In this document: positions 2,132 through 49,111 of the stretch, piece by piece | Layout: every line of letters begins with the position of its first letter | Position numbering within the stretch: the first letter of the stretch is position 1 | Virus record (IMG/VR): IMGVR_UViG_3300015245_000043 | Location: 1 to 52,167 of that record | Strand: one strand, 5' to 3' | DNA from: a virus | Taxonomy: Duplodnaviria; Caudoviricetes | DNA length: 52,167 bases | The notes under the pieces: model-generated | Databases searched by the model: none | Told to the model about the DNA's origin: nothing | The model's input: the letters and a program-made list of their open reading frames with translations, nothing else | Program-made: the position numbers and the translations under genes

Positions 2132-2151
2132 CGGCTGCTCTCGCTGCTCTC
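2128..2151. repeat. 24-bp exact direct repeat of the window end (52144-52167)
   Basis: CTAGCGGCTGCTCTCGCTGCTCTC at both positions. Confidence 0.95.
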
Positions 2152-2355: not shown

Positions 2356-2361
2356 CTCCCT

Positions 2362-4957: not shown

Positions 4958-4978
4958 GACGGTAACCCGACACTCCGA

Positions 4979-7029: not shown

Positions 7030-7043
7030 AGGACTTCCCTCCT

Positions 7044-7646: not shown

Positions 7647-7648
7647 GC

Positions 7649-8323: not shown

Positions 8324-9698
8324 CGGTCGTCTCCTCGAAATCAGGGAATAGCTGAGCCAGGATGGCAGTCTTGCGCGCGACGACGCGCATGATGATCTCG
8401 TCGAGCGAGCCGGCGAGCGTCATGAACCGCGCCAGCACGGCGCGGGTCTGACCGAGACGCGCGCAGCGGCGTGCCGCCTGCACGTTGACGGTCGGTGTCC
8501 AAGAGGCTTCCGCGAACACGACATGCGCGGCGGCGGTGAGGGTGATGGCGCGATGTCCGATGTCGAGTTGAATGAGCAGCACGCGACAAGCGACGGCGCG
8601 CTGAAAGTTATCGATCGCCGCCTGGCGCAGCGTCGGCGGGATGTCGCCGTGTATCAGCGCACAGCCGAAGCCTTGCAGCATCGAGTGCAGCACGGTCGCG
8701 ACCTGGCGGTGATGGAAAAACACGACGACCTTGTCGAGACCGCCGAAGGCAAGCTCCTCCGTCAGCCATTCCGCGACCAGCCCGGCCTTGGCTTCGCCGT
8801 AGAGCCGGCGGATCGTCGCCAGCGGTAGCTCGCTGTCCTCATTCAAGAGGATGTTGGCGAGAACGCCGTTGCGATCGTCCTCGCTCTCCTTGATCTCCAT
8901 CGCCGCGACCAGCAGCTTGCGAACGATCTCGATCTCAGGATGGTCGGCTTCGATCCGCGCCAGCACGTCGCCGGGATCGAGGGTGACGGTCGAGAAGCGC
9001 AGCGGCGGAAGCTCCGGCAAGACTTCGGCCAAGGTCCGGCGCAGCGCGAACGGTCGTAGCTGTTCGCGCAAGCTGTTCATGTTGCGGGCGCCGATGATCT
9101 TCGGCGGCAGCGGTGCCGGCCGGTCCTCGACGACGCAGTAGCGATTGATGAAAGAGATGTACGACATGATGGCGCCGTCGGCGAGCCGCAGCGGATCGGG
9201 GAACATCGCGACCAGGAGCGCGTAGAGTTCGCCGGGATGGTTCGGGCAAGGCGTGCCGCTGAGCGCCCATACCCGCTGCGCCTGGCGCGCCATGCCCCTC
9301 GACGACAAGATGTTCTGCGTCCGCTTGGCGCCGTGATTTTTGATCGCCTGTACCTCGTCGAGGATCATCAGGTCGAAGCGCGCGTCGCGCATCTGGTAGA
9401 TGAACCGGCCCGGCACCGAGAACAGGTCGTAGTTCACGACCATGAACCTGGCCGGCGAGATGGCGTCGTTGCGGAGGATCGATGCCGTCGAGCCGGGCGA
9501 CCATTCGGCGATCTCGCGCGTCCAATTGATCAGCGCGATGTTCGGCGCCACGACCAGGACCGACGCCGCCTTGATCAAGTCGGCGGCCAGGATCGCCTCG
9601 CACGACTTGCCGACGCCCATCTCGTCGAATAGCGCGCCGTAGCGCCGCTCAGCGAGGAAGCGGGCGCCGACGTGTTGGTAGGGGAACGGTAGTCCCAT
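8304..9698 (-). CDS. SNF2-family helicase
   Basis: DEMGVGKS (motif I), ILDEVQ (II), LSGTP (III), QAARRCARLGQ (VI). Confidence 0.92.
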   Translation of the reverse strand: MGLPFPYQHVGARFLAERRYGALFDEMGVGKSCEAILAADLIKAASVLVVAPNIALINWTREIAEWSPGSTASILRNDAISPARFMVVNYDLFSVPGRFIYQMRDARFDLMILDEVQAIKNHGAKRTQNILSSRGMARQAQRVWALSGTPCPNHPGELYALLVAMFPDPLRLADGAIMSYISFINRYCVVEDRPAPLPPKIIGARNMNSLREQLRPFALRRTLAEVLPELPPLRFSTVTLDPGDVLARIEADHPEIEIVRKLLVAAMEIKESEDDRNGVLANILLNEDSELPLATIRRLYGEAKAGLVAEWLTEELAFGGLDKVVVFFHHRQVATVLHSMLQGFGCALIHGDIPPTLRQAAIDNFQRAVACRVLLIQLDIGHRAITLTAAAHVVFAEASWTPTVNVQAARRCARLGQTRAVLARFMTLAGSLDEIIMRVVARKTAILAQLFPDFEETTDAADTH

Positions 9699-35658: not shown

Positions 35659-37673
35659 TTGATCACCTGTACTTTCACGCGGCCGAACCAATCGGCGGTC
35701 ACGGTGATGCCGACCGCCTGCGTTCCCTTGTTGGTAATCCAGAAGGCTGAGTTTGACATATGATGGTGAACCTGCGTCGCGTCGCACCACAGGCCGCCGC
35801 CCGCGCCGGAATTGACGTTGGAGAAAAGCACGTTGACGACATCGCCGACCGCGTAGCCGGCATTGATGATCTTGCAGATGATGTACATCCACACATCGTC
35901 AGGCCGGACGCCCAACAGATGATTGGTGATCGTGTCGGTGCTTAGGACTAACGTCCAATCCGGCGTGATGAAAGAACGCTTGCCTCGGAAGAAGAAGCGC
36001 GCGTCGGCGACGCTGCCAAGGATCAGAGTGCCGGCGTCGCCCGGCGTCGGCAGGTTCAAGGTGACCAGCGGCGTCGCCTTCGAGACGCAGCGGTCGGCAC
36101 CCTGCGCGTTGAAGGCGAGAACGCCTGCGCCCGGCGCCGACATGACTTCGATCTTCCAACCGTCGACCAGGCCGGCGCTCGCCGGGATGGTGATGATGCA
36201 GCCGCCGGCCGCCGTGTAGATGAACGTCTTGCCGTTGTCGGCAAGAGCCGGCGCATGCGCGGCACCAGCGATGATCGAAGCACCGCCGGATGGCGCCGCG
36301 CCGTTGGCCGCCGCCGTGACGTGGCCCTTCTGATCGACCGTGATGTTGGCATTCGTGTAGGCACCCGGCGCGACGGCGGTGTCAGCATGCCCGATGGTCC
36401 GGTTGGCGCTGAGATCACCGCCGCCGGTAATCGGCGCGGTGACGCCGACGGTGCGCGAGGTCGGCACGGCGCCAATGTTGGCGAGCAGCCCGGCGGCGTT
36501 GTTGATGGTCGTGAGCAGACCGCGCATGTAGGCGGTCGCGTCCGAAATCATCGCGGCGGTGAAGGCGGTCCAGGCCCAGGCTCCGGCATTGGCGATCAGC
36601 GACTTGTTGTTGTCGCCGGGATTGGCCGGGACCGGCACCTGGTTGATCGGCGTGTTCGCGATTGCCGTGATCCGGCCCTGCTGATCGATGGTCGCGGTCG
36701 CTGGCCCGTAGGTGCCAGGCACGACGCCCGGCTGATCGGCCAGGCGCACGGTGCGATCGGCGCTGAGGTCGCCGCCGCCGGTCAACCCGGTGCCGGCGAT
36801 GATCTGCCGCGTCGTCGGCGGGACGCCGAAGTAGGCTTGTGCCTGCGCGGCGTTGGCGGTGCCGGTCAAGAACGCCTTGGCATAGGCGGTCGCGTCGCTG
36901 ATCCGCGCGACCAGGAAGGCGAGCCAATTGAAGGCGCCGGCTCCGGTCGCGGTGAGAACCTTGTCGACATCGCCGGCAACCGGCGGCGGCACCGATCCCG
37001 ACCCTGAGATCAAGCCCTGCACCTGACCAAGGGTCGGCACGTCGGTCGGCGCGACGGCGGCGACGGCGCCCTTGATCGTCTTGCCGGCGGCGGTCCATTT
37101 GCCGTCGGCGGTGTCGATCGTCAGCACGTCTTGCAGGACGTAGGCGGTGTGACCGGGATTGACGATCAGACCCTTGCCGGCGACCAGCGGCGGCCCCGGC
37201 ATGCTGGCGGCGGCGGTCTCCGCTGCGGCTTGCGCGGTCTGCGCGCCCTGCTCGTAGAGGAAGGCCGATGACGCGGCATCGGCGGCGGTCGCAGCATCGG
37301 TCGCGCTCGACGCCGCATGCGTCGCGGAGGTCGCGGCATCGTCGGCGGCGGCTTGCGCGCTGAGCGCAGCGGCTTCGGCCGCCGCAACCGAGTTCGCTTC
37401 GGCCTCGCTCATCACCGCCAGCACGCTATCGTCGAGACTGTCGGCGGTGACGACGCCATTGACCAGGCCGCCGTCGTCGCGCTGGATCAGCGCGAGCCGT
37501 TCCTGCAAGAGGTTGATGCCGTCGTTGCTCTGATCGTAGTCGGCGCCGATCCAATCCGCCGGCAGCGGCGCCGTCGGATGATCGGTCTGCCATTGAACGT
37601 AGTCGTAGAGCCGCGTGATTGGCGTTGGGACCGGCGGCGGTACGTCGAGAACCGAAGGCGCGTCGTCTGGCAT
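35655..37673 (-). CDS. Tail fibre protein
   Basis: Likely start 37673; IQRDDG.L.NG.V anchor, Ala-rich coil, two long repeats containing GGGDLSA.RT and TID/TVD..G. Confidence 0.85.
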   Translation of the reverse strand: MPDDAPSVLDVPPPVPTPITRLYDYVQWQTDHPTAPLPADWIGADYDQSNDGINLLQERLALIQRDDGGLVNGVVTADSLDDSVLAVMSEAEANSVAAAEAAALSAQAAADDAATSATHAASSATDAATAADAASSAFLYEQGAQTAQAAAETAAASMPGPPLVAGKGLIVNPGHTAYVLQDVLTIDTADGKWTAAGKTIKGAVAAVAPTDVPTLGQVQGLISGSGSVPPPVAGDVDKVLTATGAGAFNWLAFLVARISDATAYAKAFLTGTANAAQAQAYFGVPPTTRQIIAGTGLTGGGDLSADRTVRLADQPGVVPGTYGPATATIDQQGRITAIANTPINQVPVPANPGDNNKSLIANAGAWAWTAFTAAMISDATAYMRGLLTTINNAAGLLANIGAVPTSRTVGVTAPITGGGDLSANRTIGHADTAVAPGAYTNANITVDQKGHVTAAANGAAPSGGASIIAGAAHAPALADNGKTFIYTAAGGCIITIPASAGLVDGWKIEVMSAPGAGVLAFNAQGADRCVSKATPLVTLNLPTPGDAGTLILGSVADARFFFRGKRSFITPDWTLVLSTDTITNHLLGVRPDDVWMYIICKIINAGYAVGDVVNVLFSNVNSGAGGGLWCDATQVHHHMSNSAFWITNKGTQAVGITVTADWFGRVKVQVIN

Positions 37674-37861
37674 GTGTCGACCCCCCGTCGGCTTGCGGCT
37701 ATAGCACCATCTCGACACAAAGGGAAGTAGCGCGCCCCGTCGGGTAGGTGTAGCTTTCTGGCGGGACGCTTCGGTTGAGGCGTCGGCGACAACCTGTCGG
37801 CACACCCGACGGGTCGGCGCAGACCGGGCGGAGCGTCCCACCTGACCTGGAGATTGCGACC

Positions 37862-38119
37862 ATGAACGACGAGGGAAACTGCGCCGCCGTGCGCGCGGGC
37901 CGCTGCCCCGACTGCGGCGACGAGCAGATGATCGCCGGCCCTTGGGGCGGCGCTTCCCGCAACCTCTACTGCGCGGTTTGCCTAAGCGCCTGGTGCGCGC
38001 ATGGGATCAAGTACGGCGTGATCTCGGTGCAGCCGGTCGGCAAGATCACGCGCGACGTGATCGAATGGGCGAAGCGCGTCTACCACGACGAGCGATGGCA
38101 CGGCAGCAAACAGCGCTGA
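37862..38119 (+). CDS. Small zinc-ribbon protein
   Basis: CPDC...GP.GG...CAVC; starts directly after GGAGATTGCGACC. Confidence 0.7.
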   Translation: MNDEGNCAAVRAGRCPDCGDEQMIAGPWGGASRNLYCAVCLSAWCAHGIKYGVISVQPVGKITRDVIEWAKRVYHDERWHGSKQR

Positions 38120-38135
38120 CGCTTGGAGGAGATCG

Positions 38136-38393
38136 ATGGCCTACAGGCTACGTGAAACACGGATCATCGCATCGAGCGAGCTACGCGACGCCAACGGCAA
38201 GCGAGCAGAAGTTCTCACCTACGCCGTTCGCAAACTCGGCGACACCTGGCACTACAAGACCGCCGTCATCGGTTGGAAGGGCGAGGAAGGCCGCGCCTGG
38301 TTCGGCGAGTGGCCGGACCAGGAGGCGGCTGAGCGCGGCCACGACGACACCTGTCTCAAAATCCACAACGACCAGGGTGTCACGCTGCAATGA
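38136..38393 (+). CDS. Hypothetical protein
   Basis: GGAGG RBS; YKTAV..EAAERGH resembles the C-terminus of 40531-40989. Confidence 0.7.
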   Translation: MAYRLRETRIIASSELRDANGKRAEVLTYAVRKLGDTWHYKTAVIGWKGEEGRAWFGEWPDQEAAERGHDDTCLKIHNDQGVTLQ

Positions 38394-38599
38394 CGCCGGA
38401 GCGCTTCGAGTTCCTATTTAATTGGACGCTCGACGCCAGCGGCGCGCTCTGGCTCGGCATCGCCATCGGTAGAGGCTGGTGGTGGGGACCGCCACTCGGC
38501 TACATGATTGGCCGCTGGTCCGGCGTCCACTTCACCCGCTGGCTACGCCGCCGCCAGCACGACCATCTACAACGCATGATGCAGGAGCTATCGGAATGA
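38390..38599 (+). CDS. Small putative membrane protein
   Basis: Trp/Gly-rich hydrophobic segment; ATGA-coupled. Confidence 0.55.
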   Translation: MTPERFEFLFNWTLDASGALWLGIAIGRGWWWGPPLGYMIGRWSGVHFTRWLRRRQHDHLQRMMQELSE

Positions 38600-38964
38600 G
38601 ACGCTACGACCACGAGCCGAAGCCAGGTGCCTACGGCGTCTGCGAGCGCTGCGGCGATCCGGCGACGCACCCCGGCCCGTTTGAGCAGGCGAAGCCCGAA
38701 GATCGTCTCGGCGATGCCCCGGTGCAGGCCGACTACCAGAAAATGATGACCGCCATCATGCAAGGCATCGACGAGCTTCTAAATCCCGACAAGGAGACCA
38801 AGGGCCGCGCGACCGGCATCCTGATCATGATGTTCCCCTACGGCGACCACAGCGGGCGCTGCAATTATATGAGCAACGGCGCCGACCGGCGCGGTGTCGT
38901 GATCCTGATGAAAGAGATGATCGCGCGCTTCGAGGGTCAGCCGGACGTGACGGGACGCGCGTGA
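38596..38964 (+). CDS. Conserved phage hypothetical protein
   Basis: MFPYG..GRCNYMSNGADR motif; GGAG RBS. Confidence 0.7.
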   Translation: MRRYDHEPKPGAYGVCERCGDPATHPGPFEQAKPEDRLGDAPVQADYQKMMTAIMQGIDELLNPDKETKGRATGILIMMFPYGDHSGRCNYMSNGADRRGVVILMKEMIARFEGQPDVTGRA

Positions 38965-39287
38965 TCTACGTCCTCGAAACCGGCGGCCGGATCGGCATGA
39001 TGCTGCGCCCGCCGATCGCGCCCAACGAGCTAGGCGAGCTATTCCCCGAAGCCTATCCGGGTTGGACCTTGCTGACCTGCCAGGTGATCGAGCTTGCCGG
39101 CCAGCGCTTTCAGATGTTCTACCGCGCCGGCCACGACGGCGAGGTCAATCAGGCGGCATCACAGATCAATCGATCGTGCGGCGACGAGGAATGTATTCAC
39201 GGCACGGTGATCATGCTATCCGGCCCGCACCTGTTCGACGATGACGTGATCGATAAATTCAGCGACCAGGATTGGGGCAACGCATGA
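38961..39287 (+). CDS. Hypothetical protein (DUF3846-like)
   Basis: VNQAAS...IHGTVIML pattern. Confidence 0.55.
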   Translation: MIYVLETGGRIGMMLRPPIAPNELGELFPEAYPGWTLLTCQVIELAGQRFQMFYRAGHDGEVNQAASQINRSCGDEECIHGTVIMLSGPHLFDDDVIDKFSDQDWGNA

Positions 39288-39481
39288 TCGACGACAAGAC
39301 CAGAGCGCTGATCACGGAGCTTAACGACCTGTTCGCGAACGAATGCGATCTCGACGATGCCGACGACGCCTTCCGCGCGGCGTTCGCCTGCGTCGCCGTT
39401 GCCCGCACGATCGTAACCGAGATGGTCGGCGGCGAGCGCGCGAAGGTCTGGTTCCAGGCGGTGACGGATCGCGTCGCATGA
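39284..39481 (+). CDS. Hypothetical protein
   Basis: ATGA-coupled ORF in the gene chain. Confidence 0.6.
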   Translation: MIDDKTRALITELNDLFANECDLDDADDAFRAAFACVAVARTIVTEMVGGERAKVWFQAVTDRVA

Positions 39482-39687
39482 AAGTCCGCACCTTCACGCC
39501 AGCCAAAGGCCCGGAGACCGAAGCGATGCTCGACAAGATGTTCGCCGACACCGCCGGCATGATCGTGATCGCGTTGAAGCCCGACGATCTCGTGCAATGC
39601 GTCGCGCTCGACATGGACAGCAGGCAGGCCGCCGAAGTCCTCTACGAGTGCGCGCTGATGTTCAAGAAGGCGAGCAAGGCGTCATGA
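39478..39687 (+). CDS. Hypothetical protein
   Basis: ATGA-coupled ORF in the gene chain. Confidence 0.6.
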   Translation: MKVRTFTPAKGPETEAMLDKMFADTAGMIVIALKPDDLVQCVALDMDSRQAAEVLYECALMFKKASKAS

Positions 39688-39923
39688 CGGATGCCAAGAA
39701 GCGCCCGCTGCAATTGGAGGAGATCGCCGCCGGCCGCCGGATCGAGCAATTCGTGCGCGATCGGCTCGACGCCGGCATGGTGTTGACCATCGTCGTGCTG
39801 ACGCCGGACGGCGAAAGAGCGAGCATCCACATGGCCTGCAACCCGCCGATGGAGCCGGACGCCAAGGCCGTCATGGATGCCGTGCTGACGGCGTTGAAGG
39901 CGGCGCGCGAGGACATGGGATGA
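39684..39923 (+). CDS. Hypothetical protein
   Basis: ATGA-coupled ORF in the gene chain. Confidence 0.6.
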   Translation: MTDAKKRPLQLEEIAAGRRIEQFVRDRLDAGMVLTIVVLTPDGERASIHMACNPPMEPDAKAVMDAVLTALKAAREDMG

Positions 39924-40534
39924 TCGAAGAAGTCCTCCATCCGACGCTGACCAAGCTGGCCGATGTCGAGCCGCTGCGCGCCTGCGGCTCCTGCTCGCTG
40001 TGCTGCAAGCTGGTGCCGGTTGCATCACCGCAAGTCGTGAAGGATGCCGGCGTCTGGTGCGACCATTGTACCAAGCCCGGTTGCGCGATCTACGCGACAC
40101 GGCCGATGCCGTGCCGGGTCTGGTCCTGCTGCTGGCTGCTCGATGCCAACCTGTCGGAGGTCGACGCGCTGGAGCCGCGCAAATGTCACGTCGTCATCGA
40201 TCCGGTCTGCGACGAGGTCATCTTCCGCTCGAATTCGACCGGCGAGGAGCAAATCGAGACGGTCGTGCAGATGTGGTGCGATCCGGCCTACCCCGGCGCC
40301 TGGCGCTCGCCCGCCGTGCGCGCCGCGATCGACTACTACGGCAAGCGCATGAAGATGGCGACGATCATTCGGTTCAACAACAAGACCGGCTTCCTGGTGC
40401 GCCCGCCGTCGCTGTCGCCGACCGGCACCTGGGAGGAGAGCGAGCAGGCGGCACCGATCGACCGCAACGAAATGAGGGACAAATTGAAAGCGCTCGACGG
40501 CGGCGACCACGTCTACGGCGAGGCACACCGATGA
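39920..40534 (+). CDS. YkgJ-like CxxCxxCC cysteine-cluster (Fe-S or Zn) protein
   Basis: CGSCSLCCK, WCDHC, CAIYATRPMPCRVWSC. Confidence 0.8.
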   Translation: MIEEVLHPTLTKLADVEPLRACGSCSLCCKLVPVASPQVVKDAGVWCDHCTKPGCAIYATRPMPCRVWSCCWLLDANLSEVDALEPRKCHVVIDPVCDEVIFRSNSTGEEQIETVVQMWCDPAYPGAWRSPAVRAAIDYYGKRMKMATIIRFNNKTGFLVRPPSLSPTGTWEESEQAAPIDRNEMRDKLKALDGGDHVYGEAHR

Positions 40535-40989
40535 TCCGCCGCCCCGGCAACCGGCCGCTGTTCTACATCCTGCGCGACCACAAGGCGCTGCCGACCGATG
40601 ACGTGATCAAGTGGGGCCGGATGCTGGAGGACACGAAGGCGCGCACGGTCGCCTGGACGCTCTTTAATAATTCTGAGCCTTGGATCACGCTCGACCGCCA
40701 GAAGATGCTCGACCGCGAGGCAGCGCGGGTCGAGCTTGGCTTGCGTCCGCACGACATCGAGCAGCTTCGCACGCACTACGCCCGCATCATGGTCTCGACC
40801 GTGTTCCTGGGGCTAGATCACCGATGGGACAGCGGTCCGCCGCTGCTGTTCGAGAGCATGTGCTTCAACGGTCCCTTGGATGAAGCGCAGGAGCGCTACA
40901 CGACCTGGGAGCAGGCGAAGAAGGGTCACAGTGAAATGGTCGAGGCAGTCAAGAACGCGATGGTCGAGGAGGCGGTGAAGGCGCGATGA
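40531..40989 (+). CDS. Conserved phage hypothetical protein
   Basis: VSTVFLGLDH..PPLLFESM.F..RYTTWEQAKKGH motif. Confidence 0.75.
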   Translation: MIRRPGNRPLFYILRDHKALPTDDVIKWGRMLEDTKARTVAWTLFNNSEPWITLDRQKMLDREAARVELGLRPHDIEQLRTHYARIMVSTVFLGLDHRWDSGPPLLFESMCFNGPLDEAQERYTTWEQAKKGHSEMVEAVKNAMVEEAVKAR

Positions 40990-41210
40990 AGAAACAACCG
41001 GGCATGAAGGCACTGGCGCGGCGCCTGCGGACCGCCCGCATCGAAGCCGGGATCGAGACCAGCGAGGCGGCGGCCAGGATGATTGGGGTGAGGAGTGGTG
41101 TCTACTATCGCCACGAGAACGCGCAGTCGATGCCGACGATCACGCACGCGGCGAAGTACGCCAAGGCGTTCGGGGTGTCGGCGTGCTGGCTGGCATTCGG
41201 CCTGTCATGA
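40986..41210 (+). CDS. XRE-family HTH protein
   Basis: RLRTARIEAG..AAARMIGV..YYRHEN..AKAFGVSACWL. Confidence 0.85.
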   Translation: MKKQPGMKALARRLRTARIEAGIETSEAAARMIGVRSGVYYRHENAQSMPTITHAAKYAKAFGVSACWLAFGLS

Positions 41211-41404
41211 TCACCTTGAAGGTCAAGCCGTCCTGGTCGATCCGCGCCGCCAAGCTGTTCGCGCCCGGCAGCGAGATCGTGCTGATCCGCTTCGCCGACG
41301 ACTTCGAGAGCGTCGAGATCGTACATGACAACAGGATGTCGTCGCGCGCCCTGCTCGAAGCGGCGCAAATGGCACTGGCTCGCGTGATAGGGAGAGTGTC
41401 GTGA
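41207..41404 (+). CDS. Hypothetical protein
   Basis: ATGA-coupled ORF. Confidence 0.55.
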   Translation: MITLKVKPSWSIRAAKLFAPGSEIVLIRFADDFESVEIVHDNRMSSRALLEAAQMALARVIGRVS

Positions 41405-41628
41405 GCAAGAAGATGGTCGTGAAGGTGCAGACGCCGATCGTCAGCAACGCACCGAACCCGCCGGCGATGGTCTACGACCAGACGCGCAAGTTCCAGATGT
41501 TCATCGAGAAGAAAGACCTGCCCGACTGGAATTGGATCGTCGAGCGCGGCGGCAAGGCGTTCTACCTGGCGAGGATCAGCGACGACGGGATCACGCTGAT
41601 CCGGCGCGTCAGCGACCGCACATGGTGA
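41401..41628 (+). CDS. Hypothetical protein
   Basis: VVKVQTP..MVYDQTR..KAFY.A motif; GGGAG RBS. Confidence 0.65.
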   Translation: MSKKMVVKVQTPIVSNAPNPPAMVYDQTRKFQMFIEKKDLPDWNWIVERGGKAFYLARISDDGITLIRRVSDRTW

Positions 41629-42257
41629 AGCAGCCGGGCAATAGCAGCGGCCGGATCGCCAACAAGCGAAAGCCGTTCGGCGCGCACGGCATCGATGATG
41701 CCATCGACGAGGGAGCCAGGATCAACCAGCGTCATCCCGGCTCGCTGCGCGCGACGCGGCGGGCGATCGAGAAGCTGTTGAAGAAGCTGCGGCGGCTTCA
41801 AGAGCATTGAGCGCTCGCACGACCAGGGCGGCATTCTCCTCGCTGTAGCAGACGGCAACGCGGTGCCGGCCGTAGATGTTATCCGGTTTTTCGCGATCAC
41901 CGATGTCCCATATTTCCGGCGGCAGCGACTTGAAGCTGACGCCGCCCTCGTGGCGATGACTGTAGTAACGGTCCATGTCGGCCTCCTCACAATCGATCAG
42001 ACGATAAGGCTGTTACTCGCCAGTGTGCAATAGGATTGAAAGCCTGCGTGGAATTTTTCTCGGTCAACCATATAACCAATCAGCACGCGCGTTCGGGGTG
42101 ACCGGGGTGGGCGGGTTGCGAGCGCCGGCCACGACACGGCGCGGCCGGCGCGCAGCGCGCTGCCTGCGCGCCCCTGCCCGCCAAGGAGGAGGCAGCGCCG
42201 CCCCTCCCTCACTGTGACAGTGCGGCGCTGGATTGCGTTCCTAGTGGGATCAACGGG

Positions 42258-42797
42258 TTAGCTCAGCGGATCGGGCGCTAGTGTCCGCTCCCATGCCTCT
42301 AGTCTGGCCTGACCGACGGCGGCAAGGCGCTCTAGCTCGCTCCTCGACATCTCTGCTAGTGCCTTGCCGGGTTGCGGCGCGCCAGGCGCGAACGCTCCCG
42401 CTTCTGGTGTCCCGGTGAGGTAGTAGCCGGCAAGCTCAGCAGCAAACCGCGTCGCCTGCACCAATTCGCGGAGCTTAGCATCGGGCCGCGCCATTTCCTC
42501 ACGAATGCGGAACAGCCCGAAGGGAACAAGCTGCGCCGCAGCGTAGGCGCGCTGTAGCTCGATGACGGCGGCAGCGAAGATCGGTTCCCGCAGCCATCGC
42601 CTGACGGTCTCGACATCGAGCGCCAGGCGCCGCGCGATCTGCGAAGCCCACAACCCATGATAGACCATCAGTTCAACCGCCCCTAGCTGTGCGTCCGTCA
42701 GGCGGTCGAGCGCTCGCAAGTCGCCAGCACCAGGCCCAACCCCGCGCCGGTTCGCCGCAGCCACTCGCCGCAGCGCCAGCCCTGTGTGATCCGTCAT
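42258..42797 (-). CDS. Putative terminase small subunit (HTH)
   Basis: LTDAQ..IARRL..ETVRRWLREP HTH and C-terminal LAEMSRSELE; GGAGGAGG RBS. Confidence 0.6.
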   Translation of the reverse strand: MTDHTGLALRRVAAANRRGVGPGAGDLRALDRLTDAQLGAVELMVYHGLWASQIARRLALDVETVRRWLREPIFAAAVIELQRAYAAAQLVPFGLFRIREEMARPDAKLRELVQATRFAAELAGYYLTGTPEAGAFAPGAPQPGKALAEMSRSELERLAAVGQARLEAWERTLAPDPLS

Positions 42798-43068
42798 CGC
42801 CGGTCCCTCCTCCGCACTGGCTTACTGCCGGCCGCAGGTCGACTGCAAGCGTTCTCGTCTGTTCTAGGGGTGTGACACTTCGGAGCAAAACTAGTTCCCC
42901 TATGAGAGCGCTATATACTCCGCCGCCGCCGCCAAGCCAGCATCAGGTCAGCACCAGATCAGACACAGATAGTAGCCCTACACGGGATTGGTTTAGCAAA
43001 CACTGTCACACCCCTTTTCGAGGTTTTCTGCCGTTTTCTTGCTTCCACACTACTGAGTAAATCCGTTG

Positions 43069-43098
43069 TTGATTTCTTATTACTCACTCGTGTAAGGT
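43069..43098 (+). promoter_or_regulatory. Putative sigma70-type early promoter
   Basis: TTGATT-18-TAAGGT in an AT-rich gap upstream of the early gene block. Confidence 0.5.
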
Positions 43099-43152
43099 GT
43101 CGGTTGCCCGTCGACACGGCGGGCGACACTTAACCGACAGGAGATTGCGACC

Positions 43153-43320
43153 ATGTCCAAGAAGGATTTCCAGCTAATCGCCGAGACGCTGCGCGCTCGC
43201 GGCGCTCAGCACCCCATCGCCGTCGCGACCATCGCTCGCGACTTCGCCGACGCTCTCAGGGCGACTAACAGCCGCTTTGACCGCGCCCGCTTCCTTGCTG
43301 CCTGCGGCGTGTCGGAGTAG
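43153..43320 (+). CDS. Conserved small early phage protein, 55 aa (absent from the ORF track)
   Basis: MSKKDFQLIAETL...FADALRATNSRFDRARFLAACG; AGGAG RBS. Confidence 0.8.
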   Translation: MSKKDFQLIAETLRARGAQHPIAVATIARDFADALRATNSRFDRARFLAACGVSE

Positions 43321-43325
43321 GGCCG

Positions 43326-43460
43326 ATGAACTACGCCGCTCAGCTACTCGTGGCCGTCGCCTTGACCTTCATCGCGACCGCCTGCATCAGCGCTCCCGCT
43401 GCCATCGTGCAGACCGTGACCGCTGCCATTGAGGAGGTCGCACCCCATGCGTCACGGTAA
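43326..43460 (+). CDS. Small hydrophobic protein, 44 aa
   Basis: MNYAAQLLVAVALTFIATAC; fills the gap between neighbours. Confidence 0.45.
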   Translation: MNYAAQLLVAVALTFIATACISAPAAIVQTVTAAIEEVAPHASR

Positions 43461-43713
43461 CGCCCTGATGATCTCCGACGGCGCCAGCAATCCTGCTGGC
43501 GTCGCGCGGGCGCTGGTCGACGCGATCGACGAATGCAGGAAGGAGACACCTTACCGCGATCCGCGCGGCGATCCTGCCGTGATGCTGATCACGCACCAGC
43601 TAGCGTTCCTGCTCAGCCTGCCAACCTGCGAACGGCTCGACGATTGGGATACCTGGCGCAAGCTCTGCCGGGCGCATGTCGACGCCGCAACGGCCGGGAG
43701 GGTTGCAGCATGA
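43447..43713 (+). CDS. Hypothetical early protein
   Basis: GAGGAGG RBS; GASNPAGVA..DPAV.LI..QLAFL. Confidence 0.7.
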   Translation: MRHGNALMISDGASNPAGVARALVDAIDECRKETPYRDPRGDPAVMLITHQLAFLLSLPTCERLDDWDTWRKLCRAHVDAATAGRVAA

Positions 43714-43976
43714 CGACACCAGACGAGTATTGGCGCCGGCCCTATCGGGCGCGCGTCGAGACTTCGCACTTTAGCGGCACCTTCACTTTCGACAACGAAG
43801 CCGACGCCGTCGACTACCTGCACCAGCAATTCGCCCGCGTGCGCCGGATCATTCGCAACGGCGAGTACGGGACATCCTGGGTTAACTTCGACTGCTACCG
43901 CTCCTACATCGAAGGCCCGGCCGGGCGCGTCGCCGCTCGCTACGTGCTGTTCGTCGACAAGCTCGAAAGCCATTGA
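43710..43976 (+). CDS. Hypothetical early protein
   Basis: GGAGGG RBS; ATGA-coupled. Confidence 0.65.
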   Translation: MTTPDEYWRRPYRARVETSHFSGTFTFDNEADAVDYLHQQFARVRRIIRNGEYGTSWVNFDCYRSYIEGPAGRVAARYVLFVDKLESH

Positions 43977-43977
43977 A

Positions 43978-44043
43978 GGTCGAAACGGGGTGTTAGCTCT
44001 GCTAACATCCTGTCGCGGCGTGACGCGCCGCCTGATGATGACC
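43978..44043 (+). ncRNA. Type II hammerhead ribozyme 1 (predicted cleavage after GUC, 44014)
   Basis: GGTC-GAAAC-[GGGGTGTTAGC tct GCTAACATCCT]-GTC-[GCGGCG tgacg CGCCGC]-CTGATGA-t-GACC: complete catalytic core and three stems. Confidence 0.88.
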
Positions 44044-44064
44044 ACACCAAGGAGATTGCGACCA

Positions 44065-44418
44065 ATGGCAACGACACGTACTGACCGCCGGACCTATGCC
44101 GGCACTGACTTTCGCGGCTGGTTCCGCCGCAAGCTCAAAGACAGCGCGGGAGACATCGCCCGGCATGGCGCCGACGCGGGCTATCCTCACATCACCTACA
44201 CCAGCGACACCGTGAAAATCTTCGATCGCTTCGGCGCCGAGATTTGGACGATGGCAGTCGAGGACGCGGAAAGCATGGGATGCAAGAACGTCGCCGAGAT
44301 GATCGCCGGCTTCGGCCGCGCCGACATGCTCGCGGACTTCGACCAATTCAAGAACCTGATGGTGTGGTACGCCTGCGAGAAGGTCGCACACGAGATGGAG
44401 GACGGCGACAATGCCTGA
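44065..44418 (+). CDS. Early protein, possibly Ocr-like
   Basis: DIARHGADAGYPHITYTSDT...FKNLMVWYACE; acidic C-terminus; AGGAG RBS. Confidence 0.7.
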   Translation: MATTRTDRRTYAGTDFRGWFRRKLKDSAGDIARHGADAGYPHITYTSDTVKIFDRFGAEIWTMAVEDAESMGCKNVAEMIAGFGRADMLADFDQFKNLMVWYACEKVAHEMEDGDNA

Positions 44419-44839
44419 ATTCATTCTCGACACTGGCAACGAAGCGGGAGCGGCGGCGTTCGCCGCTCTCGACGAATTCACGCGCGGCTATGTGACCTGC
44501 ATGTTCTTTACTTCGACAGGATCGGGCGACGATGACGATCTAGAGCATGCGACACTGGCAGAGCTAGCGCCGGAGACCTGGACACGGATCGAGACCGATT
44601 GCGCGGCGTTCCAGTTCATCGCGCCACACATGCTGACGATGGCATGCGAGCGCGACGGCTACAACGCCGGTCGCGCTGGTCATGACTTCTGGCTGACGCG
44701 CAACGGACACGGCGCCGGCTTTTGGGATCGTGACGAGCTAGAGGCGAGCGACCTGGGCGACAAACTCTCGACCATCGCCCGCCGCTTCGGCTCCTGCGAC
44801 CTGTATCGCGGCGATGATAACAACCTGTACCTGGCATAG
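44411..44839 (+). CDS. Conserved acidic early phage protein
   Basis: AGHDFWLTRNGHGAGFWDR motif; GGAGG RBS. Confidence 0.8.
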   Translation: MPEFILDTGNEAGAAAFAALDEFTRGYVTCMFFTSTGSGDDDDLEHATLAELAPETWTRIETDCAAFQFIAPHMLTMACERDGYNAGRAGHDFWLTRNGHGAGFWDRDELEASDLGDKLSTIARRFGSCDLYRGDDNNLYLA

Positions 44840-44851
44840 GAGATTGCGACC

Positions 44852-45313
44852 ATGACTGACGTTCAACAATACACGCACTACGACGCGCCGACGCGGGCGC
44901 AGACCGTGACGATACAATGGGAGCGCGTCGAGGCGCGCGACGATAGCGGCGACACCCCGGAGGAGCGTGACGAAGGCTTCTGGCCGTCCCTCGACAAGGA
45001 CAAGGCTGGCTATGTCGGGGAGGAGAATGCGGCCCGCTTCGATGAACTTTGCGAGGCGGCCGACGCGCGCTTCAAGGGTTGGCGCGATGGCGACTGGTAC
45101 TTTATCGGCGTCGCCGCGCGGGCGCATATCAGCATCCCCATCGGCAGCGGATCGTTCCGCACCATCACTATCGATAGCGGCGGCTTGTGGGGGATCGAGA
45201 GCGACGCAGGCGACTACCTCGACGAGGTATTCGAGGAGGAGAAGGCCAGCCTGCTCGCTGAGCTTGCCACGCTTGGCAAGTGGGCGGCTGAGCAGAAAGG
45301 AGAAGTGACGTGA
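44852..45313 (+). CDS. Conserved acidic early phage protein
   Basis: W.DGDWYFIGV..GLWGIESD motif; AGGAG RBS. Confidence 0.8.
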   Translation: MTDVQQYTHYDAPTRAQTVTIQWERVEARDDSGDTPEERDEGFWPSLDKDKAGYVGEENAARFDELCEAADARFKGWRDGDWYFIGVAARAHISIPIGSGSFRTITIDSGGLWGIESDAGDYLDEVFEEEKASLLAELATLGKWAAEQKGEVT

Positions 45314-45564
45314 ATAAGGAGCGACGCGAGCGCCTGCGGAAGGCGATGGCTGCGATCAACGAAGCGCTGGCGGGACAGATCGAGGAGGTCACCGCCGTCG
45401 CCGACGAGGAGCAGGAGGCATTCGACGGCATGCCCGAAGGTCTACAGGCCGGCGAGAAGGGTCAGAAGATGGAGGAGGTCGCGACGCAGCTACGCGACGC
45501 TGCGGAGGCTCTAGAGCAGGCCCGCGACGATCTTGACACGGCGGTCACGGAGGCATGCGAATGA
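45310..45564 (+). CDS. Conserved acidic helical phage protein
   Basis: MNKERR..EEQEAFDGMPEGLQAGEKG motif. Confidence 0.8.
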   Translation: MNKERRERLRKAMAAINEALAGQIEEVTAVADEEQEAFDGMPEGLQAGEKGQKMEEVATQLRDAAEALEQARDDLDTAVTEACE

Positions 45565-45674
45565 GCGGCCACTTCAACGGCATGCGGAAGATCGACCGCC
45601 CGCTCTACACCTGGGCGCGCGTGATCGCCGTCGCCCTCGGCTTCCTTCTGATCTACTGGCTGACGAGCAGATAG
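45561..45674 (+). CDS. Small single-pass membrane protein, 37 aa (absent from the ORF track)
   Basis: MSGHFNGMRKIDRPLYTWARVIAVALGFLLIYWLTSR; GGAGG RBS, ATGA-coupled. Confidence 0.6.
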   Translation: MSGHFNGMRKIDRPLYTWARVIAVALGFLLIYWLTSR

Positions 45675-45732
45675 GTCGAAACGCGCGCCAGGAGGTCGCG
45701 CGTAGCACCGTGATGCGGTGCCTGACGAGACC
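45674..45732 (+). ncRNA. Type II hammerhead ribozyme 2 (predicted cleavage after GUA, 45704)
   Basis: GGTC-GAAAC-[GCGCG..CGCGC]-GTA-[GCACCG tgatg CGGTGC]-CTGACGA-GACC: complete core and three stems. Confidence 0.88.
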
Positions 45733-45768
45733 GGCGAGCGAGAGCGAGCCAGACCAGGGAGACCGACG

Positions 45769-46179
45769 ATGGTAGTGCAGCGACGCGATTGGAAGGACAT
45801 CCTAACGGATCGTCGACGCCATCAGAAGCCAACGGAGCCGACGGTCATGATCCCGCGCTGCCGCTGGTGCAAGCGGAAGCTAGAGCGGGCGACGGTCTAC
45901 ATCCACATCGCGCCGGAGTGGCAGGCGACGGACACGGTCGCGACGGTTCGCTACATGGAGCGGATCAAGGCTGGCGAGGTCGTCAGCTTCGATCGCGGCT
46001 ACTACCCTGGTCAATCGATCCATACGCCAGCGAGCGAGCGCCCGATTGTCGGGGTCAGAGTATGGGACGGCAAGAGCTACAGAGGGAAGCCGGCGCGCCT
46101 GCCGATATTCTGCAAGCCGGCCTGCGGCGTCGAATTCGCGCTCGACGCGCACCAGCATGGACATAGAAGGAGAAGCTAG
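45769..46179 (+). CDS. Zinc-finger hypothetical protein
   Basis: CRWC...FCKPAC; GGGAG RBS. Confidence 0.65.
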   Translation: MVVQRRDWKDILTDRRRHQKPTEPTVMIPRCRWCKRKLERATVYIHIAPEWQATDTVATVRYMERIKAGEVVSFDRGYYPGQSIHTPASERPIVGVRVWDGKSYRGKPARLPIFCKPACGVEFALDAHQHGHRRRS

Positions 46180-46440
46180 ATGCCGAAGCTAAGGAACGTG
46201 ACGGCTCACGAAATCGCTGAGGCCGTCAATGCCGCCGAAGATGTCAGCGCGATCTGCACTGGCATCGTCGGGCGCGTGCAGCAAGGCTATTGCGACGAGG
46301 TCGACGAGCCGGTCACGGTCGCGTCGTCGCTGCTATCGGCCAGCCGGTCGCTGGCTGACCTGGCGCACGCGATGCTGATCAAGGGACGGCTGCAAGAGCA
46401 GAAGGCGACGCTAGAGCGCACGCTGCGGAGCAGATCATGA
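46180..46440 (+). CDS. Hypothetical protein
   Basis: AGGAG RBS, 86 aa. Confidence 0.6.
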   Translation: MPKLRNVTAHEIAEAVNAAEDVSAICTGIVGRVQQGYCDEVDEPVTVASSLLSASRSLADLAHAMLIKGRLQEQKATLERTLRSRS

Positions 46441-46622
46441 AATGGTCCTGGTCCTGCGGCCACGAAGCGAGCGAGTGCTGCGCCGAATGCCATCGCCTGC
46501 TTTCGGTCAAATCGACGACGATGGTCGAGATCATCGACGACCTGATCGACGACCTGCGGCGACGCGGGCTTAACGAGAAGGCCGACGCCATCGGTCGCAA
46601 GCTGAATGAGGCACTACGATGA
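46437..46622 (+). CDS. Hypothetical Cys-rich protein
   Basis: ATGA-coupled; CGH..CCAEC. Confidence 0.55.
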   Translation: MKWSWSCGHEASECCAECHRLLSVKSTTMVEIIDDLIDDLRRRGLNEKADAIGRKLNEALR

Positions 46623-46852
46623 AACCCGCCGAATTCACGACGCTAGGGACCGCCGCCTTCGGCGAGCGCTGGCGTACCGCCCTGGCCGGCGCCATCGGCA
46701 AGTCGCGCGAGATGGTCTATCAGTACGAGCGCGGCAAGTACCCGATCCCCGACGATGTCGCCGTCAATATCCGCAAGGTCTGCGCCAAGCGGATCGAGAA
46801 GCGGATCGCGGACCTACAGGCGACGCTCCTGCGCTGCGAGCTTGCGGCCTGA
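46619..46852 (+). CDS. HTH DNA-binding protein
   Basis: FGERWRTALAGAIGKSREMVYQYERGKYPIP. Confidence 0.75.
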   Translation: MKPAEFTTLGTAAFGERWRTALAGAIGKSREMVYQYERGKYPIPDDVAVNIRKVCAKRIEKRIADLQATLLRCELAA

Positions 46853-46873
46853 ATTCCCTACCTGCTGCATAGA

Positions 46874-49111
46874 CTAATCGTCGTCGTCGCCTGCCTCGCC
46901 GGCCGGGTCGAGATAGGTGACGCCGATGCCTCTCTCGACCTTGTCGTCGCGCAGCCATAGGCCGCGCACGCGATGCCGGTACTTCCCTGTCCTGTAGGTC
47001 TGGAACCCCATCTGCTCCATCACGGCGCGGAAGCGGCCGATGCTATGGATGTAGCGGGTGTCGCCGAAGTGGATCGCGTGATAGGAGCGGAAGGCGCTGT
47101 AGAAGTCGTTGACCGTGTCGCCGTTGGCGGCGCCCTCCTTCGGAGCGACGCGCGTGCAGGCGGCTTCGATGAATTCGATCTCCGGCGCGTTGCTGCTGAT
47201 CCAGATCGCCTGCGCGTCGACGCCGGCTCTCGACGGCAGGATGTAGCTGCGGCTGATGACGCCGGAAAGTGCTGAAAGCATGCGGTTTAAGATCCCGCTC
47301 ATCTCTTTTCGATCTGACCAGATCGACGGCCAGGGCGAGTGCTGGCGCTCCTCTCGCTTGTATTGCCGGCGGAATTCCATCACCAGCGCGCGGTCGCGCG
47401 TTCCCTCGCTGAGGTCGGCGGTCGACGGCCAGGAGTTACAGAGGATCACAGGGAAGGTGCAGCAATTGAAGTTCACGTCGTTGACGTACTTCTTGGCGGC
47501 GTTGATCTGCTTGGCCTCGCTGATCATCTTCAAGGGACCGTCGGGTAGCACCGCCTGATAGTTCATGTCGTCGTCGAGAAAGAGCAGCTTGCCCTCTAGC
47601 TCCGAGAGCGCGAAGCGGTCGGTTTTCAGGTTCTCGATCCGGCCGGCTTGCACCGTGCCGGGCGGTAGCATCGCGCGCACGGTCATCAGCAGCCGCGTCT
47701 TGCCGTTGTGGCCGCTGCCCTTGCAGATCAGGTAGCAGCGCGCGTCGCGCCAGGGTGTCAGCGCGTAGCCCATCGCTTCGAGCAGCATGCGCTCGTTGTC
47801 GGCCTGGTCGTAGACGTGCAGCATGCGGCCCGGTCCCTGCCGGACGCTGGTGTCGCCGTTGACGAGCCGCTGCGCGGTCGCGGCGTAGTCGTCATCGCCA
47901 GCGCGCACGATGTAGTAGGTCTCGCTGAGGACATCGGCGAAGGCGGCGTCGAAACGCGGGCAGACGCTTCGCGGATCGTAGTCGACATCGCAGCAGTAGG
48001 TGAGCAGGTCATCGGGATCGTGCGGCTTGAAGATGATGCCGCCATCGGCGGTCGAGATCAGGATCGTGCCGTTGGCGAGATTGAGGATCGGGCGCAGCGC
48101 CATCTCCGGCCGCAGCAGCGGTGAGAGCCGGTCGTGTACTTCGGCTTCGAGCAAGCCCATCGCTTGCGTGACGGCGGTGTTCACGTTCTGCGGCCTGGCG
48201 TCGCCGATGCTCATCATCAGCGCCGGTTGATCGAGCGCGACGTGCTGCATGTCCTTCTTGATCAGGTTGGCGTCGATCCGGTCCCAGGCTTTGCCGCCGT
48301 AGCGCCACCAGGCGGCGTTGTGGAAGGCGAGCTTGCCGAGACCGTAGAGACCGCGCACGGCATCGGCCAGGCGGCGCGGGACATCGTAGGTCCGGTCCAT
48401 GTCGCGCCGTAGCTGCTCGAATGTCATCTGCTTGCGGAGGGTTTTCAGGCTGATCCCGGTCGCGCCCTTGATCCGGTGCAGGAGATCGTCGACCTGGACA
48501 GGCGTCAGGCTGGCGTCGACGATGGCGGTGATCGCCGTCGCGCAGTCGTCGACCGTGCTGTCGGCCGCCAGCAGATCGACGGCGCCGCCGATCTCGACGT
48601 AGCCTGGCGCCGTCGGCGCGACTAGCTCGACCGGCGGCGGGTTGACTTCTACGTCAACCTCGTCGTCGTGATCGAAGTCGAGGTCGTAGATCAGCGTGCA
48701 GCGCCCGCCGCTCTCCTCCCAGGCTTGCTGCGCCAGCCAGCGAAAGCCGACGTGACAGTGAGCCGGATCGATCCCCTGCCATAGCCTGTCGGCGGTCTCG
48801 ACCGCCTTCGGGTCGCTGCTCCATTGGCCGCACCAATCGAGCCAGGCGGCATAACCCTCGCCGCTCTTGGCGGTCGCGGCAACGATGGCATGGCCCATCG
48901 TCACCCAATACTCGCGCGAGCGCGGATCGTTCGGCCGGATCGGCAGGTAGCGCAGCGCCTCGACGACGGCGTCAATCGAGGAAGCGAGGAGATCGCCGGA
49001 CGGCGGCGCGTGACCGTTCGCCTTGGTCGGCTTGCGCGGGCGCTGTAGCGGGACGTAGTCGATCGCGCGGAGCGCGGCGGCGATCCTACCAGTGATCGGC
49101 GAGTTGCTCAT
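46874..49111 (-). CDS. PriCT-2 / D5_N / SF3 helicase part of a P4-family primase
   Basis: REYWVTMGHA (PriCT-2), LNLANG..PHDPDDLLT (D5_N), Walker A GSGHNGKT, Walker B LFLDDD. Confidence 0.9.
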   Translation of the reverse strand: MSNSPITGRIAAALRAIDYVPLQRPRKPTKANGHAPPSGDLLASSIDAVVEALRYLPIRPNDPRSREYWVTMGHAIVAATAKSGEGYAAWLDWCGQWSSDPKAVETADRLWQGIDPAHCHVGFRWLAQQAWEESGGRCTLIYDLDFDHDDEVDVEVNPPPVELVAPTAPGYVEIGGAVDLLAADSTVDDCATAITAIVDASLTPVQVDDLLHRIKGATGISLKTLRKQMTFEQLRRDMDRTYDVPRRLADAVRGLYGLGKLAFHNAAWWRYGGKAWDRIDANLIKKDMQHVALDQPALMMSIGDARPQNVNTAVTQAMGLLEAEVHDRLSPLLRPEMALRPILNLANGTILISTADGGIIFKPHDPDDLLTYCCDVDYDPRSVCPRFDAAFADVLSETYYIVRAGDDDYAATAQRLVNGDTSVRQGPGRMLHVYDQADNERMLLEAMGYALTPWRDARCYLICKGSGHNGKTRLLMTVRAMLPPGTVQAGRIENLKTDRFALSELEGKLLFLDDDMNYQAVLPDGPLKMISEAKQINAAKKYVNDVNFNCCTFPVILCNSWPSTADLSEGTRDRALVMEFRRQYKREERQHSPWPSIWSDRKEMSGILNRMLSALSGVISRSYILPSRAGVDAQAIWISSNAPEIEFIEAACTRVAPKEGAANGDTVNDFYSAFRSYHAIHFGDTRYIHSIGRFRAVMEQMGFQTYRTGKYRHRVRGLWLRDDKVERGIGVTYLDPAGEAGDDDD

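Follow-up and report, generated by a model that had tools for sequence, protein, structure and literature searches.

Self-cleaving ribozymes flanking small phage genes have been known since 2011, when Perreault et al. described prophages in which multiple hammerheads flank single genes or short gene blocks, and proposed that they process mRNAs to gene length (PMC3088659). This processing role is given as unproven in reviews of 2017 and 2019 (PMC6155905, PMC6765202), which, like a paper of 2026, also treat the biological role as open. A preliminary description of the locus treated here had placed it among motifs that occur in phage intergenic regions with a largely unresolved function, which agrees with the parts of these sources that treat the subject (PMC3088659, PMC6155905, PMC6765202). 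In the Rfam model (RF02276, Hammerhead_II) and in the 2011 consensus, hairpin I is comparatively long (22-24 nt in the IMG/VR sample presented below) and its loop forms a pseudoknot with the 3' tail; in a type II example that was mutated by Perreault et al., this pseudoknot between loop I and the 3' tail was critical for fast cleavage (PMC3088659).

Two further systems are close enough to serve as points of reference. In Desulfovibrio vulgaris, three type II hammerheads near phage-like genes were found by cyPhyRNA-seq to cleave both in vivo and in vitro, so that the type II topology works in bacterial cells (PMC8782182). The other is the (+) hammerhead of the viroid CChMVd, which tolerates an extra A between A9 and G10.1 of its core; changing this A to U is reported to raise the rate 3-4-fold, while C or G is strongly detrimental (PMC1636495 and PMC3705267, both citing De la Pena and Flores 2001).

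The locus described here contains two type II hammerheads (HH1 and HH2) that share with the examples of Perreault et al. 2011 and with RF02276 the same core and the same permutation, in which loops close stems I and III and stem II is open, and that also share the setting of the 2011 prophage hammerheads, namely copies flanking small, poorly conserved phage genes (PMC3088659). As far as setting goes, HH1 and HH2 are what one would expect from the clustered phage hammerheads described in 2011, a textbook example that will not surprise a specialist. Unlike RF02276, both have a hairpin I of 17 nt with a U-N-A-N-G loop, a 4-bp stem II with an invariant A on its 5' side, and no evident pseudoknot. 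The D. vulgaris trio resembles them in being type II, in lying near hypothetical or phage-like genes and in having two members about 300 nt apart; this likeness is drawn by description, and the 39-nt 3' fragment reported for D. vulgaris would rather fit the longer, Rfam-type architecture (PMC8782182). CChMVd resembles HH1 in carrying an insertion at the same core position, but its hammerhead is of type III, belongs to a circular RNA replicon and has A as the natural residue, whereas HH1 is DNA-encoded, of type II, would be part of a phage mRNA and has U (PMC1636495, PMC3705267).

The window, that is, the whole stretch of DNA that was analysed, is a complete record of 52,167 bp and belongs to a phage, as seen from its terminase, primase and large virion protein; the best terminase match is 48.6% identical, and the phage is without a close cultured relative. 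HH1 lies at 43978-44043 on the + strand and, when the sequence is read base by base, is a complete type II hammerhead. The coordinates given for it in the preliminary description all match the sequence, the full core and stems I, II and III named there are present, and minimum free energy (MFE) folding gives precisely these helices. Its placement on the sense strand between a stop codon (TGA, 43974-43976) and a ribosome-binding site (AAGGAG, 44049-44054) was borne out as well, and the extra U that had been noticed between the core and stem II is real (U44039). The parts are as follows, with the compact class and the two covariance models (R1, R2) being introduced further below.

43974-43976, + strand: TGA stop codon of the upstream ORF, frame 43533-43976 (sequence, ORF list)
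43977, + strand: A directly before the 5' strand of stem II; the compact class has A here throughout (sequence)
43978-43981, + strand: 5' strand of stem II, GGUC, positions 11.4-11.1 (pairs with 44040-44043 in the MFE fold)
43982-43984, + strand: core G12 A13 A14 (sequence; aligned as core in the Rfam, R1 and R2 alignments)
43982-43986, + strand: GAAAC (sequence)
43985-44013, + strand: stem III hairpin, 29 nt, closed by the pair A15.1-U16.1 (sequence, MFE fold)
44012-44014, + strand: GUC (sequence)
44014, + strand: C17, with the predicted scissile bond at 44014/44015 (inferred by applying hammerhead numbering to the sequence)
44015-44031, + strand: hairpin I, exactly 17 nt, -11.5 kcal/mol (sequence, MFE fold)
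44032-44038, + strand: core C3 U4 G5 A6 U7 G8 A9, CUGAUGA (sequence)
44039, + strand: extra U between A9 and G10.1 (sequence)
44040-44043, + strand: 3' strand of stem II, GACC, positions 10.1-10.4 (MFE fold)
44049-44054, + strand: Shine-Dalgarno (SD) sequence AAGGAG (sequence)
44065-44067, + strand: ATG of the DUF7222 gene, 44065-44418 (sequence)

Stem III consists of 13 pairs including two G-U pairs around the loop UCU (43998-44000) and has a predicted energy of -18.0 kcal/mol on its own. Hairpin I has six Watson-Crick pairs followed by a U-G around GAC, which gives the loop UGACG, the class consensus U-N-A-N-G. The motif begins one base after the stop codon and ends five bases ahead of the SD; the frame of the upstream ORF shows third-position GC periodicity from about 43680 up to that stop. 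Set against the core definition used for hammerheads in the Methods of PMC3088659 (C3 U4 G5 A6 N7 G8 A9, G12 A13 A14, A15.1-U16.1 and H17), HH1 has every element in the right order, and its core-adjacent pairs (G44015-C44031, G44040-C43981 and A43985-U44013) contain no mispair. By this core definition, judged on its sequence, HH1 is a hammerhead; under the stricter criterion of no insertion inside the core it fails, due to U44039. Folding 43970-44050 gives, as the MFE structure, precisely the three-way junction of a hammerhead, at -35.6 kcal/mol, with a z-score of -4.46 and none of 200 shuffles being equally stable.

HH2 is found 1.7 kb downstream of HH1, and the two bracket a block of five genes on the same strand.

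44065-44418, + strand: ORF matching Pfam DUF7222, E 6.9e-11
44411-44839, + strand: ORF, second gene of the block (ORF list)
44852-45313, + strand: ORF, third gene of the block (ORF list)
45310-45564, + strand: ORF, fourth gene of the block (ORF list)
45561-45674, + strand: ORF, fifth gene of the block, 37 aa, GC3 0.95 (ORF list)
45673-45732, + strand: HH2, second type II hammerhead, including its 5' A; the motif proper is 45674-45732 (descriptor, fold)

From its 5' end, HH2 consists of A45673, GGUC, GAAA, a stem III of seven pairs, GUA with the predicted cleavage site at 45704/45705, a 17-nt hairpin I with the loop UGAUG, CUGACGA and GACC, without an extra U, and its MFE fold is again the hammerhead junction (z-score -2.73). 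HH2 overlaps by one base, its first G, with the TAG stop codon of the 37-codon ORF (45561-45674), and downstream of it stand GGGAG and then an ATG at 45769; HH1 and HH2 each have a stop codon directly before and an SD directly after. Between HH1 and HH2, stem II (GGUC/GACC) and the core are the same, and the differences are compensatory: in stem I two pairs out of six, and in stem III three out of the first seven, have both bases exchanged and still pair.

The five ORFs of the block (44065-45674, + strand) have GC3 values of 0.73-0.95, and in searches against PHROGs, Pfam and NCBIfam the PHROG and Pfam matches were only to families of unknown function. In the text on Figure 3 of PMC3088659, clustered prophage hammerheads are two or more copies on the coding strand that flank one gene or a short block of genes in phage DNA, and HH1 and HH2, both on the + strand and bracketing five + strand ORFs, are such a case. 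The genes from about 38,000 to 46,852 are on the + strand, and no terminator-like site was found on that strand between 38414 and 47200, which is consistent with one long transcript. No sigma-70-like promoter was found in 37500-47200, for a consensus that may not be the one of the host, and no tRNA was found in the window. The preliminary description had spoken of an 'early operon': the run of same-strand genes stands, while for 'early' there is only the block of small + strand genes, the HTH regulators and the adjoining primase gene.

No relatives of the upstream 147-aa ORF or of the primase were found in IMG/VR, and blastn of 43000-45500 against cultured phages returned short gene fragments only. 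For the DUF7222 gene, the IMG/VR search gave two phage contigs that share it, in which no hammerhead was found either by our own scanner or by R1 over the whole records; the regions upstream of the gene in these contigs are unrelated to the HH1 locus. None of these searches turned up an orthologous copy of HH1.

How often such motifs would arise by chance was estimated with our own type II descriptor. Its elements are, in order, GAAA, stem III as a closed hairpin whose last base is U, the base H, stem I likewise closed, CUGANGA and zero or one extra base (any base) after A9, while stem II is left open. Run over the 52-kb genome, both strands included, this descriptor matches only two sites, HH1 and 45674-45732. 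With stems of at least 4 bp, none of 300 dinucleotide-preserving shuffles had any match; with stems of at least 3 bp, at least one match was seen in three of 300 shuffles and two matches in one of 300. A simpler pattern scan gave three matches against a shuffle mean of 0.19, of which two are the same site and the third (5671-5743, - strand) was rejected as it failed the stem test. CTGATGA further occurs on the + strand at 38905, 43465 and 47253, and these sites were also rejected, being without hammerhead context.

As a way of checking HH1, the preliminary description had pointed to an Infernal scan with the Rfam models, and here the outcome went against it: no family reached its gathering score anywhere in the window. 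More specifically, RF02276 scores HH1 at 13.9 bits (E 2.7 in a local scan of 221 nt) and HH2 at 22.5 bits (E 0.016, local scan) against a gathering score of 37, and a scan of the whole window by E-value lists HH2 at E 3.7, with HH1 absent up to E 5. The other sub-threshold Rfam matches in the window (mir-598, COG2908, Glutamine-II, snoRNAs) look like chance. In the alignments, the low score of HH1 can be traced to the model, which is made for a hairpin I of greater length combined with a short stem III, and penalises the 19-nt excess of stem III as well as the extra base. When Rfam was run at its gathering threshold over 12 IMG/VR loci, six hammerheads were reported, all with a hairpin I of 22-24 nt; in these same loci, Rfam finds six of 11 long-hairpin copies vs none of 23 compact copies, so that its failure with HH1 and HH2 is a property of a subclass and not theirs alone.

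Covariance models built from relatives give a different picture, and the support for HH1 comes from these and from the shuffle test of the descriptor. R1, with 13 gap-free IMG/VR members as seeds, was run over the window with its filters switched off and gave 50.0 bits for HH2, 45.3 bits for HH1 and 15.8 bits for the next match. This score is partly circular because the seeds were retrieved with a pattern derived from HH1, and the 100% pairing within the seeds is there by construction, as the scanner that picked them demands pairing. On account of this circularity, R2 was built from 10 compact seeds whose stem II differs from GGUC and which, for that reason, could not match the HH1-derived search pattern. 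R2 scores HH1 at 49.0 bits (E 6.5e-11, a rough value) and HH2 at 48.6 bits, with the next match at 19.9 bits. That next match (15206-15264, - strand) was rejected, being without GAAA and GUH.

The members of the subclass were collected by scanning IMG/VR with the pattern GGTCGAAAC, gap, GTH, gap, CTGANGA, which returned at least 118 stretches. The generic descriptor identified at least 72 type II hammerheads in 43 of those loci, many of them neighbours that lie outside the search pattern. Among the matches listed, four of the 72 were set aside as implausible, having short stems or more than 24 nt in hairpin I, so that 68 remained, and loci with 2, 3, 4, 7 and 9 copies occur. Again among the matches listed, hairpin I is exactly 17 nt in 51 of the 68, and within this 17-nt set stem II has 4 bp in 47 of 51 and 5 bp in the other 4/51, all 51 have an A just 5' of the 4-bp stem, 44 have loop I closed by a G-C pair, and 43 have U as the first and G as the last base of the loop. 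A GGUC stem II is present in 41 of 51 (among the matches listed), a count that the search pattern favoured. The 17-nt IMG/VR members and bacterial examples (see below) were then pooled into 70 distinct rows among the matches listed, where A precedes stem II in 70/70 and loop I has its U in 70/70, its A in 57/70 and its G in 62/70.

The compact class can therefore be defined, for the present purpose, as A, a 4-bp stem II, GAAA, stem III, GUH, a 17-nt hairpin I with a G-C closing pair and a U-N-A-N-G loop, CUGANGA, an optional U and the 3' strand of stem II. HH1 and HH2 carry every element of this definition, and three of the features (the 5' A, the U-N-A-N-G loop and the 17-nt hairpin I), all of which both hammerheads fit, were in no search pattern. 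By this architecture, HH1 genuinely belongs to a compact subclass of type II hammerheads carried by phages. The genomic context agrees: an SD with a start codon follows within about 45 nt downstream in 51 of 68 hammerheads (among the matches listed) vs 14% at random positions of the same loci, and a stop triplet lies at most 12 nt upstream in 61 of 68 (among the matches listed) vs 40% at random positions. The stop-hammerhead-SD context is thus the norm of the class.

Full-length, fast-cleaving hammerheads make a tertiary contact between the regions of stem I and stem II, either loop to loop or as a pseudoknot, and such a contact is needed at physiological Mg2+. A pseudoknot between loop I and the 3' tail is not evident by inspection in HH1 or HH2, and covariation between loop I and the flanks gave no significant signal in the 70 class members among the matches listed (mutual information at most 0.26 bits). 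A non-Watson-Crick contact is suggested by the invariant A, by the conserved U and A of loop I and by helices of fixed length, and we offer it as a conjecture. The compact subclass may merit a separate description, and may already be present in the alignments of 2011.

The extra U of HH1 has many counterparts. An extra base after A9 is found in nine of the 68 IMG/VR type II hammerheads (among the matches listed) and is U in 9/9 of these listed cases, though the descriptor allowed any base. A bacterial scan for the form with U (one genome per prokaryotic species, with U specified in the pattern) returned 25 matches in 24 stretches, where a rough estimate assuming uniform composition gives about 1.6 by chance; hairpin I and stem III are properly formed in 21 of these 25, while three seem to be chance matches and in one stem III is flawed. 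With the chance matches from Novosphingobium set aside, the records belong by title to Alphaproteobacteria, Burkholderia, Acidobacteriota, Synergistales, Gastranaerophilales and others. The same U insertion is carried by the two highest-scoring matches that pass Rfam in the 12 tested loci (49.8 and 49.4 bits). Taken as a pattern across sequences, the extra U is a recurrent natural variant. This recurrence, together with the tolerance of an insertion in CChMVd, means that U44039 lowers the confidence in the activity of HH1 only slightly. The two formal tests that HH1 fails, namely the Rfam gathering score and the absence of a core insertion, are failed because of features that are common to many natural relatives.

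Taken together, it is probable that HH1 self-cleaves and, with HH2, processes the operon mRNA into a separate five-gene message. HH1 would be transcribed within a long + strand message, fold into the three-way junction and cleave at the predicted site between C44014 and G44015. Hammerhead cleavage takes place 3' of H17 and leaves 2',3'-cyclic phosphate and 5'-OH ends, and the product ends of HH1 are read from this general chemistry. The upstream mRNA would end in the stem III hairpin with a one-base overhang and a 2',3'-cyclic phosphate, and the downstream mRNA would start at the first base of hairpin I, which would carry a 5'-hydroxyl; its SD, 34 nt further on, is free of pairing when the 3' product is folded computationally. 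The products should separate, as stem II is an open helix of only 4 bp with a duplex energy of only -3.8 kcal/mol. HH2 would cut at the predicted site 45704/45705, and both cuts would release a five-gene mRNA of about 1.69 kb (44015-45704).

In bacterial RNA, 3'-terminal hairpins impede 3' exonucleases, and 5'-terminal hairpins as well as 5' ends other than monophosphates impede the entry of RNase E. From such hairpin-protected ends we infer that the two ribozymes would yield pieces that are separately stable and separately translated, so that the stability and translation of the five-gene block would become independent of the flanking genes. Ribozyme insulators such as RiboJ offer a parallel. 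They place a self-cleaving ribozyme before the SD and give the downstream cistron a defined, hairpin-led 5' end, but they are synthetic and derived from a type III satellite-RNA hammerhead. HH1 likewise lies directly upstream of an SD, and the comparison is meant as a functional analogy only.

Several other explanations have to be weighed against this one, the simplest being that HH1 is a chance resemblance in GC-rich intergenic DNA. Its Rfam scores under the gathering threshold could be read in that way, but we consider it extremely improbable, given that none of 300 shuffles (stems of at least 4 bp) produced what the genome has at two sites, both on the sense strand and intergenic, that the class models give 45-50 bits vs less than 20 for everything else in the genome, and that HH1 shows several class invariants that had not been part of any search. 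That the hammerhead is genuine in origin but now an inactive or very slow relic, with its pair of hairpins serving as an intergenic structure (an exonuclease barrier or a cistron spacer), is a more serious matter. The insertion in the core, the lack of a detected pseudoknot or loop-flank covariation (for the class rows among the matches listed) and a competing long-range helix that in context is slightly more stable than the active fold would all suit a relic; the two contigs that share the DUF7222 gene and are without the motif indicate that it is dispensable at that spot, and some clustered hammerheads are maybe non-functional according to Perreault et al. (PMC3088659). A relic is nevertheless unlikely: HH1 has the consensus base at each of its 13 core positions, the U insertion turns up again across many genomes without relation to one another and is carried by the two best of the Rfam-passing matches in the 12 loci (the 49.8- and 49.4-bit ones), the A-to-U change in CChMVd raised its rate 3-4-fold (PMC3705267, citing De la Pena and Flores 2001), and the class invariants outside the core have been kept in HH1, which argues for selection on an active architecture.

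The competing helix could also be seen as a switch. In a context of 231 nt, the MFE structure swaps stem II for a helix that pairs the core G12 (-88.5 vs -85.9 kcal/mol), formed by 43969-43974 with 44064-44069 and by 43978-43982 with 44059-44063, which covers both G12 and the AUG at 44065-44067. HH1 might then be a conditional ribozyme tied to translation, with the alternative helix hiding G12 and the AUG, and a change to the hammerhead fold, followed by cleavage, taking away the upstream strand and freeing the start codon. It speaks for this that the 11-pair alternative is the MFE structure in contexts of 106, 116, 161 and 231 nt, and that it covers the AUG while using a second GACC (44060-44063). 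We find a switch quite unlikely all the same: the helix was found post hoc, only 2.6 kcal/mol separate it from the hammerhead fold, transcription reaches the proximal GACC first, and a downstream copy of the stem II strand is not enriched in 50 hammerheads among the matches listed (12 vs 10.5 expected), so that the decoy strand is not a class feature and the alternative helix is probably incidental. Hammerhead cleavage leaves ends of the kind used by hammerhead reversal or by RtcB-type ligases, and HH1 and HH2 might serve RNA rearrangement, where a nicked chimeric hammerhead, made up of hairpin I, the core strand and GACC of HH1 and of GGUC, GAAA, stem III and GUA>p of HH2, would yield a circular five-gene RNA, or the outer fragments would be joined and the block thereby spliced out. 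The cleaved ends would suit such ligation, stem II is identical in the two hammerheads (GGUC/GACC), and the possibility is raised explicitly by Perreault et al. (PMC3088659). However, GGUC is simply the class consensus (41/51 among the matches listed, with a pattern that favoured it), the helix holding the parts together has 4 bp and -3.8 kcal/mol, and Perreault et al. report that neither spliced nor circular products were detectable in their systems (PMC3088659), all of which makes rearrangement highly improbable. Very unlikely, too, is a bolder combination, in which the compact form is a distinct, Rfam-invisible architecture where a contact between the U-N-A-N-G loop and the invariant A replaces the pseudoknot, and in which the block between HH1 and HH2 is ligated into a circular, translatable mRNA.

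The processing of the operon mRNA by HH1 and HH2 thus stays the preferred reading, and the locus is a clean and compact test case for it, with one hammerhead that has the U insertion, one that is without it, and a defined block of five genes in between. The compact subclass, which dozens of phage contigs carry and which also occurs in the genomes of bacteria of several phyla, falls under the Rfam threshold, so that routine annotation will miss it. Finally, the natural insertion is always U (9/9 IMG/VR cases among the matches listed), the very residue that is reported to speed the viroid hammerhead, which provides a small but testable link between natural variation and catalysis.

Around HH1, the predicted type II hammerhead upstream of the DUF7222 gene, and HH2, a second predicted type II hammerhead 1.7 kb downstream, the following features are relevant, together with one large ORF elsewhere in the window:

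43429-43713 and 43533-43976 (147 codons), plus strand: overlapping ORFs in different frames, compared by third-position GC
43969-43982 with 44059-44069: alternative long-range helix of 11 pairs, a rival of HH1 stem II
45561-45674, plus strand: unlisted 37-codon ORF, GC3 0.95, with a hydrophobic, membrane-helix-like stretch
45673-45732, plus strand: HH2, with core CUGACGA and cleavage triplet GUA, lacking the extra U
14542-21525, minus strand: single ORF of 2327 codons, of which the C-terminal part alone weakly matches PHROGs of virion structural proteins

In the predicted fold, the 11-pair helix pairs the core residue G12 of HH1 and also masks the downstream gene's AUG, and it is the minimum free energy structure by 2.6 kcal/mol in contexts of 106-231 nt. 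Across the class of compact type II hammerheads (those with a 17-nt hairpin I), a further stem II strand located downstream shows no enrichment. Upstream of HH1, third-position GC suggests that coding in ORF 43533-43976 may begin only near position 43680, and that before that point the real gene may be the overlapping ORF 43429-43713 in the other frame; gene starts within 43429-43976 (plus strand) are uncertain, but the stop at 43976 is unaffected.

HH2 lies directly 3′ of the TAG of the 37-codon ORF and upstream of the gene at 45769. This ORF overlaps the preceding gene at its start via ATGA, and no family match was found for it in Pfam and NCBIfam searches. The loop of HH2 stem III contains an AGGAGG, with no start codon at suitable spacing.

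Among the IMG/VR matches listed, about nine class members carry the complement of the core CUGAN within their 3′ tail, either as GUCAG (loci L018, L022, L065 and L088) or as AUCAG (L012, L031, L060, L080 and L089). By this listing the tail base opposite N7 appears to covary with the core, being G with CUGACGA and A with CUGAUGA, and such tails could form a core-sequestering hairpin. Both HH1 and HH2 lack a CUGAN-complementary tail.

Two of these loci hold dense type II hammerhead arrays, apparently with one hammerhead for each small gene: L080 has nine copies within 3 kb (about 2150-5080), and L012 has seven within 3.4 kb (about 6230-9600). The Rfam model RF02276 was run at its gathering threshold on 12 IMG/VR loci (L008, L009, L012, L017, L050, L056, L064, L069, L080, L085, L088 and L107), where it detected 6 of the 11 hammerheads with a hairpin I of 22-24 nt but missed all 23 of the compact type. 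Compact type II hammerheads are a blind spot of annotation with RF02276.
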